From the NCBI GenBank assembly GCA_003567315.1, contig PWZT01000088.1, positions 25,610-89,609 on the forward strand: a stretch of DNA of 64,000 bases, written 5' to 3'. The notes below the pieces were generated by a model. That model saw only the letters and a program-made list of their open reading frames with translations. It was not told the origin of the DNA and did not search any database. The stretch comes from Paracoccaceae bacterium (GTDB taxonomy: Bacteria > Pseudomonadota > Alphaproteobacteria > Rhodobacterales > Rhodobacteraceae). How positions within the stretch are numbered: position 1 is the stretch's first letter; each line of letters begins with the position of its first letter. Made by a program: the position numbers and the translations under genes. Positions 18,140-55,513 of the stretch are shown here, piece after piece.

Positions 18140-18283
18140 GACGCAAGACTGGCCCAATTCCGTCCGGCTGCCAAGGGGGCAATCGCGCTGTAATGTCTGC
18201 TTTTCCCAGCGACTGGTCGCTTTGGAGCCAGTTGCAGACCTGGCTTAGGCTAGAAGTCCGACTGTTCCGGAGGGAGATATCGC

Positions 18284-19654
18284 ATGTTTTTGTCGGTTTT
18301 CGATATGTTCAAGATCGGGATCGGCCCATCCTCGTCGCATACGATGGGGCCAATGGTGGCGGCAGCGCGCTTTCTCGCGCATCTTCGCGGGCTGTCTTTC
18401 AATGTCACGGGGCTGCGCGCCAGCCTGCATGGCTCGCTGGCCTTCACCGGGGTGGGGCATGCGACAGATCGCGCCGTGATCCTCGGGCTCGCAGGGTTCA
18501 CGCCCGACGGGTATGATGCAGAGCGTGCCGAGGCAACGCTCGCGCAAATCCACCGCACCAGCGAGATCGAGGCCGAGGGTCTGGGACGGCTACGGTTCCA
18601 GCCGAAATCCGATCTGATCTTCGATTACGGCCCGCCACTGCCCGGCCACGCCAATGGCCTGCGCCTGATGGCCACAGACGCGCAGGGCGATGTGATCGCG
18701 CAAGAAGTGTATTACTCCATCGGCGGCGGTTTTGTTGTCACCGAAGCTGAACTTGGCGCGGCGCCCGCGAAATCTGCCGCCGTGGTCCCCTATCCGTTCG
18801 AGTCAGCTGCACAGATGCTTGAGATGGCGCGGAGCTCGGGCAAGAGCATCGCGCAGATGAAACGCGCCAACGAGCTTGCCTTCATTGGGCCGAACACGCT
18901 GGATCAGGGCGTGCGGCGCATCTGGCAGGTCATGAATGATTGCATCGAGCGCGGGCTGAGCGCTGAGGGCACTCTTCCCGGCGGGTTGCATGTGCGCCGC
19001 CGCGCCAAGGGAATTCGCGAGGCGCTGGAGCGCGAGCGTGGCCTCAACCTGACAGCCCCCCATGTCATCAATGACTGGATCAGCACCTACGCGATGGCTG
19101 TGAACGAGGAAAACGCCGCTGGTGGGCAAGTGGTGACAGCACCTACCAATGGCGCGGCCGGCGTGGTTCCCGCAACGATTCGCTACTGGCTGGATCATGT
19201 CCCAGGCGCTTCGGAAGTGCGGGTGGGGGAGTTCCTGCTGACAGCGGCGGCAATTGGAGGGCTGGTGAAGCACAACGCCTCGATTTCAGGCGCGGAATGC
19301 GGCTGTCAGGCGGAAGTCGGCTCGGCTTCTGCCATGGCGGCTGCGGGGCTCGCGGCGGTGCTTGGCGGCACGCCGGAGCAGGTGGAAAATGCCGCCGAAA
19401 TCGCGCTCGAACATCATCTTGGCATGACCTGCGATCCGGTGAAGGGTCTGGTGCAGGTGCCGTGCATCGAGCGCAACGGGCTGGGCGCGATCAAGGCGGT
19501 CTCGGCCGCAAGCCTCGCGCTGCGCGGCGATGGCTCGCATTTCATGCCGCTCGATAATTGCATCGAGGCCATGCGCCAGACCGGCGCCGATATGTCGGAA
19601 AAATACAAGGAAACTGCCCTTGGCGGGCTTGCGGTCAATATCCCGAATTGCTGA
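18284..19654 (+). CDS. sdaA: L-serine ammonia-lyase (Fe-S dependent)
   Basis: [59 protein letters not shown]. Confidence 0.96.
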
Positions 19655-19741
19655 AGGCTGCGCTGAATTTGAGCCAAATCATAGTCGAGCAGTGACGGGG
19701 GCCACATAGTCAGCATCAGGCAAACTAGTACGGAGGCCGAG

Positions 19742-20074
19742 ATGCAGCTTTATGAAGTCGAAGTGACCTGTCCCGATAAGGAAAGTGCACGCGAGATTGC
19801 CCGCGCTTGCCTTCAGGCGCGGCTCATCGCCTGTGCGAATCTGCTGCCCAAGGTCGAGAGCCTGTTCTGGTGGCAGGGCCAGATCGACTCGGAGAGCGAA
19901 GTGCTCTTGCGGATGAAGACGCCCGCCGCCAATTTCGCGGCGGTCTGCAGCAAGATCGGCGCCAGCCACCCGTTCGAGTTGCCCGCCATCATCGCGCTGC
20001 CCGCGCAAGGAATGGGGCCGGGTGTTGCTGACTGGGTGGCAGAGGAAACTCAGGCCGCGAAGATCTGCGACTGA
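19742..20074 (+). CDS. cutA: Divalent-cation tolerance protein CutA
   Basis: RLIACANL, SLFWWQGQI, HPFELPAIIA. Confidence 0.9.
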   Translation: MQLYEVEVTCPDKESAREIARACLQARLIACANLLPKVESLFWWQGQIDSESEVLLRMKTPAANFAAVCSKIGASHPFELPAIIALPAQGMGPGVADWVAEETQAAKICD

Positions 20075-20463
20075 TCGGCAAAGCCTTTCACCTCGATCGG
20101 ATTGCCAGACGGGTCACGAAAGAACATGGTCCACTGCTCGCCGGGCTGGCCTTCGAACCGCAGGCTTGGCGGGATGACGAACTCGATCCCGGCCTCTTCC
20201 AGCCGCGCGGCAAGCGCCTTGAAGCGCGCGACATCCAGCACAAGGCCGAAATGCGGCATTGGCACCATATGATCGCCAACCTTGCCCGTGGTCTCATTGG
20301 GAAAGGGTGCGCCCAGATGCAGGCTGATCTGATGGCCGAAGAAGTCGAAATCCACCCAGGTTTCCGTGCTACGCCCTTCCATGCAGCCAAGAACCTCGCC
20401 ATAGAATCGGCGCGCTTCGTCCAGATCATGAACGTGATAGGCGAAATGAAACGGCATGAGCAT
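20050..20463 (-). CDS. VOC/glyoxalase family protein
   Basis: FHFAYHV..LDEARRFYG, VDFDFFGHQ, PHFG, TMFFRDPSGNPIEVK. Confidence 0.88.
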   Translation of the reverse strand: MLMPFHFAYHVHDLDEARRFYGEVLGCMEGRSTETWVDFDFFGHQISLHLGAPFPNETTGKVGDHMVPMPHFGLVLDVARFKALAARLEEAGIEFVIPPSLRFEGQPGEQWTMFFRDPSGNPIEVKGFADQSQIFAA

Positions 20464-20600
20464 TGTTGGCCTCCTTCAACGTGACCTGCCTCAATCACTG
20501 GTGAAATGCAATCTGATATGAATTCGTTTGGCCTCAAACACGCATTCTCACTGCGGTTCTCTATGCATTGCCCACAAGTGCGCGCACAGCGCCTTGCTAC

Positions 20601-20629
20601 TGGACGCGCGGGCAGCACGCTCCTATAAG
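20601..20629 (+). promoter_or_regulatory. Candidate sigma70 promoter of the ileS leader
   Basis: TGGACG (20601-20606), 17-nt spacer, TATAAG (20624-20629); predicted +1 at or near the uORF ATG at 20637. Confidence 0.6.
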
Positions 20630-20636
20630 GCGGCGC

Positions 20637-20684
20637 ATGTCACGGATATCGATCATTCAGCGAATTAGCGGCCCGGCACTCTGA
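20637..20684 (+). CDS. Putative Ile-rich leader peptide MSRISIIQRISGPAL (15 aa)
   Basis: ATG TCA CGG ATA TCG ATC ATT CAG CGA ATT AGC GGC CCG GCA CTC TGA; four Ile codons directly upstream of ileS. Confidence 0.65.
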   Translation: MSRISIIQRISGPAL

Positions 20685-20704
20685 CGCGCCCGGAGTGCCG
20701 GGCC
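20670..20704 (+). promoter_or_regulatory. Perfect 12-bp GC-rich hairpin in the ileS leader, no U-tract
   Basis: GGCCCGGCACTC (20670-20681) / GAGTGCCGGGCC (20693-20704). Confidence 0.7.
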
Positions 20705-20750
20705 AGCCTTGGCGCCCGCCATCCAGAAATATCGCATGAGTGACAGACAC

Positions 20751-23669
20751 ATGACCGACACGATCGACTACAAAGACACGCTTTCCCTGCCCGAAACCGA
20801 CTTCCCGATGCGCGCAGGCTTGCCCGCGCGCGAGCCCGAATGGCTTGCGCGATGGGAGCGGCTGGGCATCTATGACCGACTGCGCGCGCAGGCCGAGGGC
20901 CGCAAGCCCTTCATCCTCCATGACGGCCCTCCTTACGCCAATGGCCATCTCCATATCGGCCACGCGCTCAACAAGGTGCTGAAGGATTTCATCACCCGCT
21001 CGCAGCAGATGCTGGGGCGCGATGCGCGCTACGTGCCGGGCTGGGATTGCCACGGCTTGCCCATCGAGTGGAAGATCGAAGAGCAATACCGGGCCAAGGG
21101 GCTCGACAAGGACAAGGTCGATATCGTTGATTTCCGTCAGGAATGCCGCCGTTTCGCCGAAGGCTGGATCGATGTGCAGCGCGACGAATTCAAGCGGCTG
21201 GGCATCACCGGCAAATGGGACGATCCTTATCTGACCATGGATTACCACGCCGAAGCCGTCATCGCCGATGAGTTCATGAAGCTTCTGATGAACGGCTCGC
21301 TCTATCAGGGGTCGAAGCCTGTCATGTGGTCGCCAGTGGAAAAGACCGCTCTGGCCGAGGCTGAGGTCGAATACCACGACCATACCTCTCACACCATATG
21401 GGTGAAGTTTCCCGTCACGGAGTTTGGGGACGCTGCGTCCGATCTGAGTATTTTCGGCAAGACGAAGCCCGTATCGGTGGTGATCTGGACTACGACGCCT
21501 TGGACAATTCCACAGAACCGGGCAGTCTGTTTCGGACCTGAGATTTCTTACGGGCTTTATGAAGTGACCGAAGTGATGGAAGGGGGTAAGGAAGAGCCGG
21601 GGGCACTGATCATTTTGGCTGACGCATTGGCGGAAAGCGCTTTGAATGCGGCGAAGGTGAAGGCCGAGCGCAAGCAGGACATAGCCCCCAAAGCGCTCGG
21701 CGCGCTGGTGCTGTCACATCCATTCCGCAGCGTCGAAGGCGCGCAAGGCGAATGGGATTTCGATGTTCCCATGCTCCCCGGCGATCATGTCACCGACGAG
21801 GCCGGGACCGGTTTCGTCCATACCGCCCCCAGCCATGGCGATGACGACTATCAGATCGGGCTTAAGCACGGCCTGCCCATGACCTATAATGTGCTCGAAG
21901 ATGGCAGCTACCGTGCTGACCTTCCACTCTTCGGGGGCGAGGTGATCGTCAAGCCCGATGGCAAGGAGGGCGGCGCCAATGTCGCGGTCATCAAGCAACT
22001 GGCCTATGCAGGCGCGCTGTTCGCAAAAGGCAAGATGCGCCATTCCTACCCGCATAGCTGGCGCTCGAAAGCGCCGCTGATCTATCGCAACACCGCGCAA
22101 TGGTTCGCCGCCATCGACAAGCCGCTCGAGGACGGGATGGGCACACATGGCGACACCATCCGAGCCCGCGCGCTCGAATCCATCGACAATCTTGTGACAT
22201 GGACCCCCCGGACCGGGCGCAACCGGCTTTATTCCATGATCGAGGCGCGGCCTGACTGGGTGCTCTCGCGCCAGCGCGCCTGGGGCGTGCCGCTGACCTG
22301 TTTCGTGAAAAAAGGCGCAAAGCCGACCGATCCCGATTTCCTGCTTCGCGACCCGGAAGTGAATGCCCGCATCGTCGCCGCTTTCGAAAAAGACGGCGCT
22401 GATGTCTGGTATGTGCAAGGATTTAAGGAACGTGTCCTTGAAAACCTTCACGATCCTGATGCTTATGATCAGATTTTTGACATTCTGGATGTCTGGTTCG
22501 ACTCCGGTTCGACCCATGCCTTCGTGCTCCGCGACCGTGAAGACGGCAGTCCTGACGGAATTGCCGATCTCTATCTCGAAGGCACCGACCAGCATCGCGG
22601 CTGGTTCCATTCCTCGATGCTGCAAGCCTGCGCCACCAAGGGCCGCGCGCCCTATCACGGGGTGCTGACGCATGGCTTCACGCTGGACGAAAAGGGCATG
22701 AAGATGTCCAAATCGCTCGGCAATACCATCGCGCCGCAAGAGGTGATTGACCAATATGGCGCCGATATCCTGCGGCTCTGGGTCGCGCAATCCGACTACA
22801 CGGTCGATCTGCGCATCGGCAAGGAAATCCTCAAGGGCGTCGCCGATAGCTACCGGCGGCTGCGCAACACCATGCGCTTCATGCTGGGCAATCTCGCAGG
22901 TTTCACGGAAGAAGAGCGCGTGGCGCCAGAGGATATGCCGGAGTTGGAGCAATGGGTTCTGCACCGTCTGGCGCAGCTCGATGCGCAGGTGCGCAAGGGC
23001 TACGCGGCCTACGACTTTCAGGGCGTTTTCCGCGAGTTGTTCGCTTTTGCGACATCGGATCTCTCGGCATTCTATTTCGACATCCGCAAGGATGCGCTCT
23101 ATTGTGATACACCCTCATCGCTGCGTTGGCGGGCTGCGCGGACTGTGCTGGACATCCTTTTCCACCGACTGACAACCTGGCTCGCGCCAGTGCTGGTATT
23201 CACGATGGAAGATGTCTGGCTCTCGCGCTTTCCCGGCGAGGGCTCTTCGGTGCATCTGCAGGACTTCCCCGATACGCCAGCGGATTGGCTCAATGAACCA
23301 CTGGCGCAGAAATGGGCGGGCATCCGGCAGGCGCGGCGGGTGGTAACGGCCGCGCTCGAAATTCAGCGCCGCGACAAGGAAATCGGCGCGTCACTGGAGG
23401 CCGCGCCGGTGGTCCATGTGCGCGATGCCGAGATCATGACCGCGCTGAAATCCGTCGATTTCGCGGATGTCTGCATCACTTCGGGCATGGTTCTGACTGC
23501 TGACCCGGTTCCGGCCGAAGCTTTCCGCCTGCCGGAAGTGCAGGGCATCGGCGTGATTTTCGAGCGCGCCGAGGGGCAGAAATGCCAGCGCTGCTGGAAG
23601 ATCAGCGCGGATGTCGGCAGCCATAGCCATCCGGGCACATGTGCACGTTGTAACGAGGCGCTTGGGTGA
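20751..23669 (+). CDS. ileS: Isoleucine-tRNA ligase (type 1)
   Basis: DGPPYANGHLHIGH, PGWDCHGLP, WTTTPWT, GTGFVHTAPSHG, KMSKS, C-terminal CQRC...CARC zinc site; alternative in-frame ATG at 20736. Confidence 0.98.
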   Translation: MTDTIDYKDTLSLPETDFPMRAGLPAREPEWLARWERLGIYDRLRAQAEGRKPFILHDGPPYANGHLHIGHALNKVLKDFITRSQQMLGRDARYVPGWDCHGLPIEWKIEEQYRAKGLDKDKVDIVDFRQECRRFAEGWIDVQRDEFKRLGITGKWDDPYLTMDYHAEAVIADEFMKLLMNGSLYQGSKPVMWSPVEKTALAEAEVEYHDHTSHTIWVKFPVTEFGDAASDLSIFGKTKPVSVVIWTTTPWTIPQNRAVCFGPEISYGLYEVTEVMEGGKEEPGALIILADALAESALNAAKVKAERKQDIAPKALGALVLSHPFRSVEGAQGEWDFDVPMLPGDHVTDEAGTGFVHTAPSHGDDDYQIGLKHGLPMTYNVLEDGSYRADLPLFGGEVIVKPDGKEGGANVAVIKQLAYAGALFAKGKMRHSYPHSWRSKAPLIYRNTAQWFAAIDKPLEDGMGTHGDTIRARALESIDNLVTWTPRTGRNRLYSMIEARPDWVLSRQRAWGVPLTCFVKKGAKPTDPDFLLRDPEVNARIVAAFEKDGADVWYVQGFKERVLENLHDPDAYDQIFDILDVWFDSGSTHAFVLRDREDGSPDGIADLYLEGTDQHRGWFHSSMLQACATKGRAPYHGVLTHGFTLDEKGMKMSKSLGNTIAPQEVIDQYGADILRLWVAQSDYTVDLRIGKEILKGVADSYRRLRNTMRFMLGNLAGFTEEERVAPEDMPELEQWVLHRLAQLDAQVRKGYAAYDFQGVFRELFAFATSDLSAFYFDIRKDALYCDTPSSLRWRAARTVLDILFHRLTTWLAPVLVFTMEDVWLSRFPGEGSSVHLQDFPDTPADWLNEPLAQKWAGIRQARRVVTAALEIQRRDKEIGASLEAAPVVHVRDAEIMTALKSVDFADVCITSGMVLTADPVPAEAFRLPEVQGIGVIFERAEGQKCQRCWKISADVGSHSHPGTCARCNEALG

Positions 23670-51399: not shown

Positions 51400-52167
51400 A
51401 TGGCTCTGGAAATGATGGCAGTCCCCTGTTTGCGCGACAATTACGCCTATCTCGTGCATGATCCCGGCAGCGGGCGCACCGCCGTCGTCGATGTGCCTGA
51501 CACCGCCCCTGTTCATGATGCGCTCGAAGCACGCGGCTGGACACTCACTGACATCCTCATCACGCATCATCATGACGACCATATCGGCGGTGTCATGCGC
51601 CTGCGCGAGGATACAGGTGCCGCGGTATGGGGCGCCAGGGCCGATGCGCACCGCTTGCCGCCGCTCGACCATGCGCTTGCCGAGGGCGATACAGTCTCGA
51701 TCGGCGCGGAAGCGGGGACCGTGATCGATGTGCCGGGGCATACCGTCGGGCATATCGCCTTTCATTTCCCCGACTCGCAGCTCGCCTTCACGGCCGACAG
51801 CCTGATGATCTGCGGTTGTGGACGGCTTTTCGAGGGAACGCCCGAACAGATGTTGCAAAGCCTGCGCAAGCTTATGGCACTGCCGGATGAGACGCTGATC
51901 TGCTCAGGCCATGACTATACCAACGGCAATCTCGCCTTCGCCCGCAGCGTGGATCCTGACAATGAGGCATTGGCCGAGCGCATGGACCAGGTTGCGGCTG
52001 ATCGCGCCGCCGGGCGCCCCATGGCCGTGGCCACGCTGGCGCTCGAGAAAGCGACCAACCCGTTTCTGCGTGCAACGGATGACGCGCTCAAACGAAGCCA
52101 CCACATGACAGAGGCAATCGATGTCGAAATGTTCGCGCATCTTCGTGCGCTGAAAGACACGTTCTGA
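51400..52167 (+). CDS. gloB: Hydroxyacylglutathione hydrolase (glyoxalase II)
   Basis: DNYAY, THHHDDHIGG, PGHT, ADSL..GCGRLFEG, GHDY, TNPFLR. Confidence 0.95.
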   Translation: MALEMMAVPCLRDNYAYLVHDPGSGRTAVVDVPDTAPVHDALEARGWTLTDILITHHHDDHIGGVMRLREDTGAAVWGARADAHRLPPLDHALAEGDTVSIGAEAGTVIDVPGHTVGHIAFHFPDSQLAFTADSLMICGCGRLFEGTPEQMLQSLRKLMALPDETLICSGHDYTNGNLAFARSVDPDNEALAERMDQVAADRAAGRPMAVATLALEKATNPFLRATDDALKRSHHMTEAIDVEMFAHLRALKDTF

Positions 52168-52335
52168 AAGATGATCTGGCAGGCAATTCTTAAGAATTCT
52201 TGCCAGATTCACCTTGTTGCGCCAAAGTTGAACAAAAATAACTTGAAGCGCGCTGAATAAAGCCGAAGTTAACACTATGAGGCGAAACTGGTTGCCGGTT
52301 AGCCGACCAACCGATCAAGAACAGGAGCTCCCACC

Positions 52336-54654
52336 GTGCCAAGTTTCTCAACCACACTGGAGCAGTCAATCCACGGCGCATTGGCCCTGGCAAACTCGCG
52401 GCGTCACGAATTCGCGACGCTCGAACATCTGCTGCTGTCACTGATCGATGAGCCCGATGCCAGCCGCGTGATGCTGGCGTGCAATGTCGATCTTGATGAA
52501 CTGCGCAAGACGCTCGAGGAATTCATCGAGGATGAACTCGCCTCGCTGGTCACGGATATCGAGGGCTCTGAAGCCGTGCCAACCGCGGCCTTTCAACGTG
52601 TCATCCAGCGTGCGGCGATTCATGTCCAGAGCTCGGGGCGCAACGAGGTGACTGGCGCAAATGTGCTGGTTGCGATCTTCGCCGAGCGGGAGTCGAACGC
52701 GGCCTATTTCCTGCAGGAACAGGACATGACGCGCTATGACGCCGTCAACTTCATCGCGCATGGGGTGGCGAAGAATTCCGATTACTCGGAATCGCGCCCG
52801 GTGACTGGGGCCGACGAGGAGCCCGAACAGTCGAGCAAATCGGATGAGAAACCGAAGGAAACCGCGCTAGGCAAGTATTGCGTGGATCTGAATGCAAAGG
52901 CCGTGCAGGGCGATGTCGATCCGCTGATCGGGCGCTCTGCTGAGGTCGAGCGCTGCATTCAGGTGCTCTGCCGCCGACGCAAGAACAACCCGCTTCTGGT
53001 GGGCGATCCGGGGGTCGGCAAGACAGCGATCGCTGAAGGGCTTGCCAAGAAGATCGTCGAAGGTGAGACACCCGATATTCTCGCCAATTCCACGATTTTT
53101 TCGCTTGATATGGGCGCGTTGCTGGCAGGCACGCGCTATCGGGGCGACTTCGAGGAACGCCTGAAATCGGTTGTGCAGGAGTTGGAAGATCACCCGGACG
53201 CGGTGCTTTTCATCGACGAGATTCATACGGTTATCGGTGCTGGCGCGACCTCGGGTGGGGCGATGGATGCCTCGAATCTGCTCAAGCCTGCGCTTCAGGG
53301 CGGGAAACTGCGCTGCATGGGTTCGACCACTTATAAGGAATTCCGCCAGCATTTCGAAAAGGACCGCGCCCTGTCGCGGCGTTTTCAGAAGATCGATGTG
53401 GTGGAGCCGACTGTCTAGGACGCAATCAAGATCCTTATGGGTCTGAAGCCCTACTTCGAAGAGCATCACGAAATCCGCTACACCAACGATGCGGTAAAGA
53501 CTGCCGTCGAACTCTCGGCGCGCTACATCAACGATCGAAAACTGCCCGACAAGGCGATCGATGTGATCGACGAAGCGGGTGCTGCTCAGCACTTGCTATC
53601 GGGATCCAAGCGGAGAAAGACGATCAGCCCCAAGGAGATCGAGGCCGTGGTCGCCAAGATCGCCCGCATTCCGCCGAAGAGCGTCTCCAAGGACGATTCG
53701 GAGGTGCTGCGCGATCTCGAATCCGCGCTCAAGCGCGTGGTCTTCGGCCAAGACGCGGCCATCGAGGCGCTGTCCTCGGCGATCAAGCTCGCCCGCGCGG
53801 GTCTGCGCGAGCCGGAAAAGCCCATCGGCAACTATCTGTTCGCAGGGCCCACTGGTGTGGGCAAGACCGAGGTGGCCAAGCAACTGGCGGATTCGCTCGG
53901 TGTGGAACTGCTGCGCTTCGACATGTCGGAATACATGGAGAAACACGCGGTCTCGCGCTTGATCGGGGCGCCGCCGGGCTATGTCGGCTTCGATCAGGGC
54001 GGGCTTCTGACCGATGGAGTGGACCAGCACCCGCATTGCGTGCTCCTGCTCGACGAAATTGAGAAGGCGCATCCGGATGTCTACAACATCCTGTTGCAGG
54101 TGATGGATCACGGCCAATTGACCGACCATAATGGCCGGACCGTGAATTTCCGCAATGTCATCCTGATCATGACTTCGAATGCAGGCGCGGCCGAGCAGGC
54201 GAAAGCCGCCATCGGTTTCGGGCGCGAGCGGCGCGAAGGCGAGGACACGGCGGCCATCGAGCGGACCTTCACGCCCGAATTCCGCAACCGTCTGGATGCC
54301 GTGATCAGCTTCGCCCCGCTGCCGAAAACGGTTATCATGCGAGTTGTCGAGAAATTCGTGCTGCAACTCGAAGCGCAGTTGATGGATCGCAATGTCACCA
54401 TCGAGCTGAGCGAAGAGGCTGCGGCCTGGCTGGGCGAGAAAGGCTATGATGACAAGATGGGTGCGCGGCCTCTGGCGCGGGTGATCCAGGAACACATCAA
54501 GAAGCCGCTGGCCGAGGAACTGCTGTTCGGCAAGCTCGCCAAGGGCGGGGTTGTGCGGGTGCAGATGCGCGATGGCAAGCTTGTCCTCGAGATGGATGGC
54601 CCGGACGCAAAGCGCCTGACGGGCAACAATCCGCCCTTGCTGACAGCAGACTGA
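52336..54654 (+). pseudogene. clpA: ATP-dependent Clp protease ATP-binding subunit ClpA interrupted by one in-frame TAG (53416-53418)
   Basis: ORFs 52336-53418 and 53437-54654 share a frame; Walker A GDPGVGKT and GPTGVGKT; ...VVEPTV*DAIKILMGLK...; may be a sequence error. Confidence 0.9.
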
Positions 54655-54736: not shown

Positions 54737-55513
54737 ATGCTCATACCGATCCGCGATCATAACCCGTCCAGCAAGCGCCCCTATGTCACTTATGCGCTGA
54801 TGATCACGAATGTGGTCGTGTTCGCCCTGTATTTCCCGCTTTTCGGCGATAGCCACGCGCTGATGCGCTTCTTCCAGCAATGGGGCATGCTGCCTGCCCG
54901 GCTGAGCAGCGGCGAGGGGTTCGTGACGCTCATCTCGCATCAGTTCCTGCATGGAGACCTTTTGCATCTCGGCGCCAACATGCTGTTTCTGTGGATTTTT
55001 GGTGACAACATGGAAGAGGTCTGGGGTCGTTGGAAGTTCCTCGGGTTCTATCTGCTCTGCGGATTTGCCGCGGCAGGCCTGCAATTTTTCACGGAGCCGA
55101 ATTCGACCATCCCGATGGTCGGCGCCTCGGGTGCCATCGCAGGCGTGCTGGGCGGGTATTTCCTGTTCTATCCGCGCGCGCGCGTCGACATTTTCTTCTT
55201 TCTCATCATAATCTTCCGCATCATCCCGATCCCGGCCTGGGTCGTTCTGGGAAGCTGGTTCGTGTTCCAGCTTCTCGGCGGGCTCAGCATTCCGGCCGAT
55301 GCGGGCGGGGTGGCCTATTGGGCGCATGCGGGCGGGTTCATGGCCGGGGTGGTCCTGTCCTTTCCGCTCTGGCTCAGGATGGGCGGTGCCGAGTATTGGC
55401 GCCGTTGCGAAGGGCATCCGCCAAATGCCGAAGCGCAATACCGTTTCGTGAAGACCAGCATCCCGGCCGCCGGGCGCAAGCGCCGTTTCCGGCCCAGCCC
55501 GTGGCGCCGATAG
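54737..55513 (+). CDS. Rhomboid family intramembrane serine protease
   Basis: FLHG..HLGANM..LWIFGDNME, VGASGAIAG, AYWAHAGG. Confidence 0.93.
   Translation: MLIPIRDHNPSSKRPYVTYALMITNVVVFALYFPLFGDSHALMRFFQQWGMLPARLSSGEGFVTLISHQFLHGDLLHLGANMLFLWIFGDNMEEVWGRWKFLGFYLLCGFAAAGLQFFTEPNSTIPMVGASGAIAGVLGGYFLFYPRARVDIFFFLIIIFRIIPIPAWVVLGSWFVFQLLGGLSIPADAGGVAYWAHAGGFMAGVVLSFPLWLRMGGAEYWRRCEGHPPNAEAQYRFVKTSIPAAGRKRRFRPSPWRR

Follow-up and report, generated by a model that had tools for sequence, protein, structure and literature searches.

A stretch of 64,000 nt of DNA (hereafter the window; positions 25610-89609 of contig C23 of the source assembly) contains a clpA gene interrupted by an in-frame TAG codon, which raises the question of whether this codon is a real mutation, an error in the assembled sequence, a stop that ribosomes read through, or the border between two separately made polypeptides. 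The gene lies on the + strand (52336..54654) and comprises 772 codons, the internal TAG included: 360 codons run from a GTG start at 52336 to the TAG, and a further 411 lead to a TGA stop at 54652-54654. The GTG is preceded, at a distance of 8 nt, by the Shine-Dalgarno (SD) sequence AGGAG (52323..52327, + strand), with a predicted anti-SD duplex of -6.6 kcal/mol. Positions 53401-53439 of the window read GTG GAG CCG ACT GTC TAG GAC GCA ATC AAG ATC CTT ATG, the TAG being codon 361 (53416..53418, + strand; G000:C23:79025-79027, where G000 is the source genome). No second stop or frameshift was found across the 772 codons, in agreement with the initial annotation of this DNA, which had described a single TAG splitting an otherwise intact gene. 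The upstream open frame (52336..53418, + strand) codes for 360 aa (39.4 kDa), while the downstream frame, if begun at the ATG for Met368 (53437..54654, + strand), codes for 405 aa (44.6 kDa); reading through the stop would give a product of 84.7 kDa. The gene is flanked upstream by gloB (hydroxyacylglutathione hydrolase; 51400-52167) and downstream by a gene for a rhomboid protease (54737-55513).

The read-through protein scored 1121.5 bits against the NCBIfam equivalog TIGR02639 (cut-off 993.15), covering profile positions 2-733 of 734, and it formed one continuous alignment with Escherichia coli ClpA (PDB 1KSF) over residues 7-746 (E = 2e-289). Since both long halves match one protein end to end, the arrangement cannot be the product of chance. 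Pfam analysis placed the Clp_N and AAA domains (the N domain and the large AAA+ subdomain of the first module, D1) before the stop, and AAA_lid_9, AAA_2 and ClpB_D2-small after it. In D1, the Walker A motif GDPGVGKT (residues 223-230; 53002-53025), the Walker B motif LFIDEIH (residues 291-297; 53206-53226) and the Arg fingers R348/R349 of the RRFQKID strand (within 53377-53397) all precede codon 361, which bears out the earlier statement that the stop falls past the D1 ATPase core. The second module, D2, contains a Walker A motif GPTGVGKT (residues 504-511; 53845-53868), a Walker B motif LLLDEIEKA (residues 570-578; 54043-54069) and the ClpP-docking IGF loop AIGFGR (residues 625-630; 54208-54225), which aligns with SIGLIH of E. 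coli; all these motifs are on the + strand. The alignment with E. coli ClpA revealed no middle-domain insert, the long coiled-coil M domain being the mark of ClpB and ClpC. Further, ClpB chains matched the query in two separate stretches, unlike E. coli ClpA. The score, the N domain followed by two AAA+ modules, and the IG(F/L) loop without an M domain all place the protein in the ClpA equivalog; the uninterrupted reading frame of a member is, however, broken by the one TAG at codon 361. The locus as written thus represents a clpA bearing a nonsense lesion rather than an intact ClpA member.

The closest ClpA proteins, with 91-94% identity, bear the name Roseinatronobacter, a genus of soda-lake Rhodobacteraceae, and these names assign the source genome to that genus. 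Comparison with these close relatives, a check proposed by the initial annotation, showed that none of the 19 congeners with an aligned full-length clpA has a stop at codon 361; all 19 have Glu at this position, encoded by GAG in 15 and by GAA in four. A single G-to-T transversion, turning the GAG of Glu361 into TAG as had been supposed, would thus explain the stop. No in-frame stop was seen in clpA of the 43 other species representatives of the genus, nor in 150 further genera of the family, each represented by one genome; clpA was free of detected internal lesions in 41 of these 43 congeners and in 148 of the 150 other genera. ClpA itself is present in 150 of 151 genomes of the family, the source genome counted, and in all 136 of good quality. 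Residue 361 varies: among 160 ClpAs from Alphaproteobacteria it is E in 88, P in 33, D in 17 and A in 12, with other residues in the remainder.

Searches for a same-species copy of the gene, in collections that may leave out records of the source genome itself, gave none with or without the stop. Exact look-ups of both clpA fragments returned no match, and a 43-nt pattern that left the variable base as N had no exact match in metagenome contigs. Protein-guided scans found nothing closer than 87% in genome contigs or 85% in metagenome contigs, and a search of 5.8 billion proteins found no ClpA closer than 94%. One protein, P0002 (915 aa, ENA; 1690 bits), was considered as a near-identical wild-type allele and rejected, since its identity is 84% and it contains an internal duplication. 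In P0002, residues of about 434-576 occur in tandem, which may reflect a chimeric assembly or a true internal duplication of the first part of D2. In the clpA of a congener (G191:C4:278106-280616), one open frame of 845 aa matches residues 1-90 and then 56-772, which suggests that part of the N domain has been duplicated in tandem and in frame.

The gene bears no trace of decay beyond the stop itself. At columns invariant in the other 19 sequences the source clpA has no private substitutions (the congeners have 0-4 each), and pairwise comparison with its nearest relatives gives a dN/dS of 0.02-0.05 both before and after the stop, the same as between intact copies. This agrees with the absence of further decay noted at the outset, and implies that the downstream half has not drifted. 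The lack of private changes, together with the low dN/dS of both halves, points to a change that either is very recent on the scale of the species branch or does not exist in the organism. In the latter case the organism would have GAG, and the T at 53416 would exist only in the assembled bin, as might result from low coverage, from an oxidative G-to-T artefact of the library, from faulty polishing, or from the assembler having picked a minor variant among the strains. Zero decay favours such an error, as does the intact state of the partner genes clpS (G000:C69:17248-17484) and clpP (contig C66) in the source genome; intact clpS fits a recent mutation no better than it fits an error or a variant of low abundance. 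The presence of ClpA in nearly every genome of the family also argues for an error: as ClpA is near-universal and under strong purifying selection, a fixed null allele is unexpected a priori.

The quality of the assembly bears on this point in both directions. The source assembly is a metagenome bin of 2.84 Mb in 102 contigs, with 63.5% G+C, 90% completeness and 2.8% contamination, and its contig statistics look like those of a short-read bin. A 3.9-kb contig, C88, duplicates positions 18281-22570 of the window (C23:43890-48179) at 78-83% nucleotide identity, and three similar contig pairs were observed (C1/C43, C11/C14 and C48/C75). Such duplicates are congeneric contamination or a strain mixture in the bin, and because the bin holds some congeneric contamination its consensus may mix strains, which weakens the case for a real mutation. 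In addition, the G-to-T change creates a new CTAG, a tetranucleotide that the source genome avoids (609 occurrences observed against about 1788 expected from trinucleotides, a ratio of 0.34), which counts in favour of an error. Against an error, the TAG lies in the middle of its contig, 79 kb into the 133 kb of C23 and away from its ends, and consensus-level substitution errors are generally rare in short-read assemblies. The accuracy of the consensus was assessed with ORFs from 800 kb of the congener G009, used in tblastn searches of the source genome with a threshold of at least 75% identity; another genome, G024, was too distant to serve as a reference, only 62 of 203 ORFs reaching at least 70% identity. 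The comparison took in about 213 orthologues, with some 94,000 residues aligned, and clpA had the only genuine internal stop; the upper 95% limit for other broken genes is thus 1.4%, which indicates a generally accurate consensus. The other apparent internal stops proved to be over-extended 5′ ends of crude ORF calls or wrong-frame ORFs. A genome-wide scan for same-frame ORF pairs was uninformative, since it returned 1771 pairs that were mostly neighbouring genes.

A stop so placed, with the frame fully open on both sides, could in principle be read through by programmed or efficient decoding of TAG (a suppressor tRNA, pyrrolysine, or a leaky context), yielding full-length ClpA; the initial annotation had listed low-level readthrough among its options. 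The variability of residue 361 means that any inserted residue would probably be tolerated, and the 10% of the genome that is missing could hold a suppressor tRNA. However, none of the 41 tRNAs predicted by ARAGORN in this 90%-complete genome has a CUA anticodon. Stop codon usage at 185 conserved gene ends of the source genome was TGA 132, TAA 28 and TAG 25; since TAG ends 25 of these 185 genes, it is an ordinary working terminator here. Nor did any other internal TAG appear among the approximately 213 genes compared, and a 105-nt stretch covering the stop and what follows it is predicted to fold no better than shuffled sequences (z = -0.31), so that no structured RNA element follows it. Programmed readthrough would be marked by a conserved stop and by a decoding tRNA or a stimulatory RNA element; here the stop is not conserved in relatives, TAG terminates normally, and neither a CUA tRNA nor RNA structure was found, which leaves programmed readthrough unsupported and, in our view, very improbable.

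The position of the stop within the protein invites a different explanation. Glu361 corresponds to E352 of E. coli ClpA. It directly follows the RRFQKID Arg-finger strand, where the small (lid) subdomain of D1 makes its first turn, and the stop falls where the lid joins the D1 large subdomain. PDB constructs of the D1 large subdomain of ClpB, ClpC and Hsp104 end at positions equivalent to query residues 358-367, and the Pfam lid domain starts right after. The upstream product would thus contain a complete N domain and D1 large subdomain while lacking the lid, D2 and the AIGFGR loop; the downstream frame, taken from Met368, encodes the greater part of the D1 lid (profile position 11 of 104 onwards), along with the D2 AAA+ module, the IGF loop and D2-small. 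Such a clean break, with an ATG within seven codons of the stop, might allow ClpA to be made as two chains, ribosomes re-initiating at ATG368 or at GTG438 and the N-D1-large and lid-D2 fragments assembling non-covalently to form an unfoldase with partial activity. Bacterial ribosomes are known to re-initiate after nonsense codons. Of the in-frame starts beyond the stop, one alone has a good SD: the GTG at codon 438 (53632..53649, + strand, for this start together with its SD), preceded at a spacing of 9 nt by an SD-like AAGGAG (predicted duplex -8.5 kcal/mol) that itself encodes Lys-Glu; if this start were used, a D2-only fragment of 36.7 kDa would speculatively be produced. A precedent for cooperation between fragments is provided by Thermus thermophilus ClpB, the halves of which are described as reconstituting activity when expressed separately (Beinker et al. 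2005, J Biol Chem 280:37965, as cited in PMC4239642).

Several observations nevertheless make a two-chain ClpA improbable. The earlier remark that the ATG at 53437 has no clear SD holds, its anti-SD duplex of -3.5 kcal/mol comparing poorly with the value at the true start, and a protein begun there would miss the first seven residues of the lid. Met368 is not a conserved start, since it is replaced by Thr in two congeners. The T. thermophilus precedent involved a cut between D1 and D2, not inside D1. A naturally split protein would be marked by a downstream start with a ribosome-binding site and by recurrence of the split in relatives; the split is, however, unique to the source genome, and a congener whose clpA is broken nine codons further on has no usable start nearby in its downstream frame. 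The breaks found in other clpA genes are, besides, scattered along the sequence (at about residues 70, 339, 370, 448 and 540).

These other breaks are of several kinds. In the congener just mentioned (G022), a 1-nt deletion has turned GGGCCTG into GGGCTG at clpA codon 370 (in locus L025, G022:C22:105500-109000, at about locus positions 1735-1745, ATGGGCCTG has become ATGGGCTGA). In a second congener, G012, whose genome is a single contig, about 53 nt have been deleted out of frame in the N domain, at residues 63-80 (L250, G012:C1:3777500-3781800, - strand), and this clpA is probably a genuine pseudogene. Frameshifts were found near residue 448 in G178 and near residue 540 in G130, which represent other genera of the family. 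A soil metagenome clpA that is 72% identical (L211, Ga0209474_10009538) has an in-frame TAG at residue 339 (locus positions 1997-1999), in the context YRN*FEKD, a position at which the source clpA has His. The clpB of a further congeneric genome (G206, C9:24835-25692) likewise contains one in-frame TAG.

These cases have a bearing on both of the leading explanations. Lone in-frame stops thus occur in metagenome-derived Clp genes at roughly the 1% level, and the isolated TAGs of the soil clpA and the congeneric clpB are what would be expected if such stops could arise as errors. On the other hand, clpA is occasionally inactivated for real, since the ∼53-nt deletion in G012 is unlikely to be a base-calling error; genuine disruption of clpA within the genus, in G012 and G022, favours a real mutation over an artefact. 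Taking the evidence together, an artefact is possible, though on balance we regard it as less likely than a real mutation.

The lesions at residues 339, 361 and 370 had at one stage the appearance of a hotspot at the D1 hinge, which dissolved once the copies broken at about residues 70, 448 and 540 were included. Similarly, an excess of broken clpA genes in the genus, apparent at 25 genomes (p = 0.02), fell to p = 0.08 when all 44 were counted: three of 44 in the genus against two of 150 in other genera, a difference that is not significant (Fisher test). It might still be imagined that clpA is under episodic selection for inactivation in Roseinatronobacter and that truncation leaves a functional N-D1 fragment. 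The evidence for this is the three independent lesions in 44 species representatives, two of them within 10 codons of each other at the D1-large/lid hinge; with its N-D1 part cleanly folded, the truncated protein could retain a function that needs no ClpP, for instance the sequestration of ClpS or of substrate, or could associate with a C-terminal chain made by re-initiation. We consider this idea quite improbable.

The reading we favour, with a probability of about 0.55, is that the TAG is a real and very recent loss-of-function nonsense allele of clpA, with no programmed function. The stop is the sole defect of the gene in a consensus that is otherwise clean over about 213 orthologues, it lies mid-contig, it is a substitution and hence not the usual error of a short-read consensus, and the genus is seen to lose clpA elsewhere. 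Four options had been put forward by the initial annotation; the artefact and the recent loss-of-function allele emerge from the comparison as favoured, while low-level readthrough, given the normal use of TAG and the absence of a suppressor tRNA and of structure after the stop, and a two-chain ClpA, given an unconserved Met368 with no SD before it, do not.

If the allele is real, the change from GAG to TAG at Glu361 would have arisen very recently in the lineage or population behind the Roseinatronobacter bin. Ribosomes would be expected to terminate at codon 361 and to release a 39-kDa fragment made up of the N domain and the D1 large subdomain. Given present knowledge of ClpA, this fragment would neither form a stable hexamer nor couple to ClpP; without the D1 lid, D2 and the IGF loop, proteolysis by ClpAP, including the ClpS-dependent degradation of N-degron substrates, would be lost or nearly so. 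To our knowledge, ClpA is the only known partner of ClpS. The only other Hsp100 protein detected in the source genome was one ClpB, encoded on contig C100; ClpB, ClpXP-type proteolysis and other systems would presumably continue to operate. Near-cognate misreading of UAG might supply full-length ClpA, at most in trace amounts, and this product would probably be active, since residue 361 tolerates many residues. Re-initiation at ATG368, 18 nt past the stop, could also yield a little C-terminal fragment.

A real T at 53416 would mean that the population, or part of it, lives without ClpAP and ClpS-dependent N-degron proteolysis, and that clpA is dispensable, at least for a while, in this soda-lake lineage of Rhodobacteraceae. 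If instead the T is an artefact, the matter is one of annotation only, and the gene should be flagged for checking and called neither a pseudogene nor two genes. Nothing suggests altered decoding or a new protein architecture, and neither outcome touches an open question: the gene is well known, and it carries either a commonplace lesion or an error.

The protein encoded by the repaired frame has the layout of E. coli ClpA (1KSF/1R6B), the unfoldase of ClpAP: an N domain, D1, D2 and an IGL/IGF loop, with no M domain. The two loci differ in that the codon equivalent to E352 of E. coli is a TAG here, which makes the 84.7-kDa protein impossible as written, and in that clpS, directly upstream of clpA in E. 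coli, lies on the separate contig C69. Hsp100 genes with internal starts are known, E. coli ClpA65 being made from Met169 and ClpB79/80 from an internal GTG; these starts lie at the N domain/D1 boundary, have ribosome-binding signals of their own, are conserved, and coexist with the full-length product. A restart in the clpA described here would share with them the production of more than one polypeptide from one clp gene by means of a second in-frame start, but the restart proposed here would lie downstream of a stop within D1, lacks an SD, and occurs in this assembly alone. The split ClpB of T. thermophilus, as cited above, indicates that Hsp100 AAA+ modules can cooperate without a covalent link; in what is cited, however, the split was engineered, it separates NBD1-M from NBD2 instead of parting the large subdomain of D1 from the small one, and the reconstitution concerns ClpB rather than ClpA. 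The lesion also resembles the ordinary nonsense pseudogenes and null alleles of non-essential genes that occur in bacterial populations and genome bins; these arise by a single-base change to a stop, have no compensating features, and are not conserved at the stop, as is the case here. The sporadic, independent lesions of clpA in G012, G022, G130, G178 and L211 fit the same pattern, and the present gene differs from such pseudogenes only in having as yet undergone no secondary decay.
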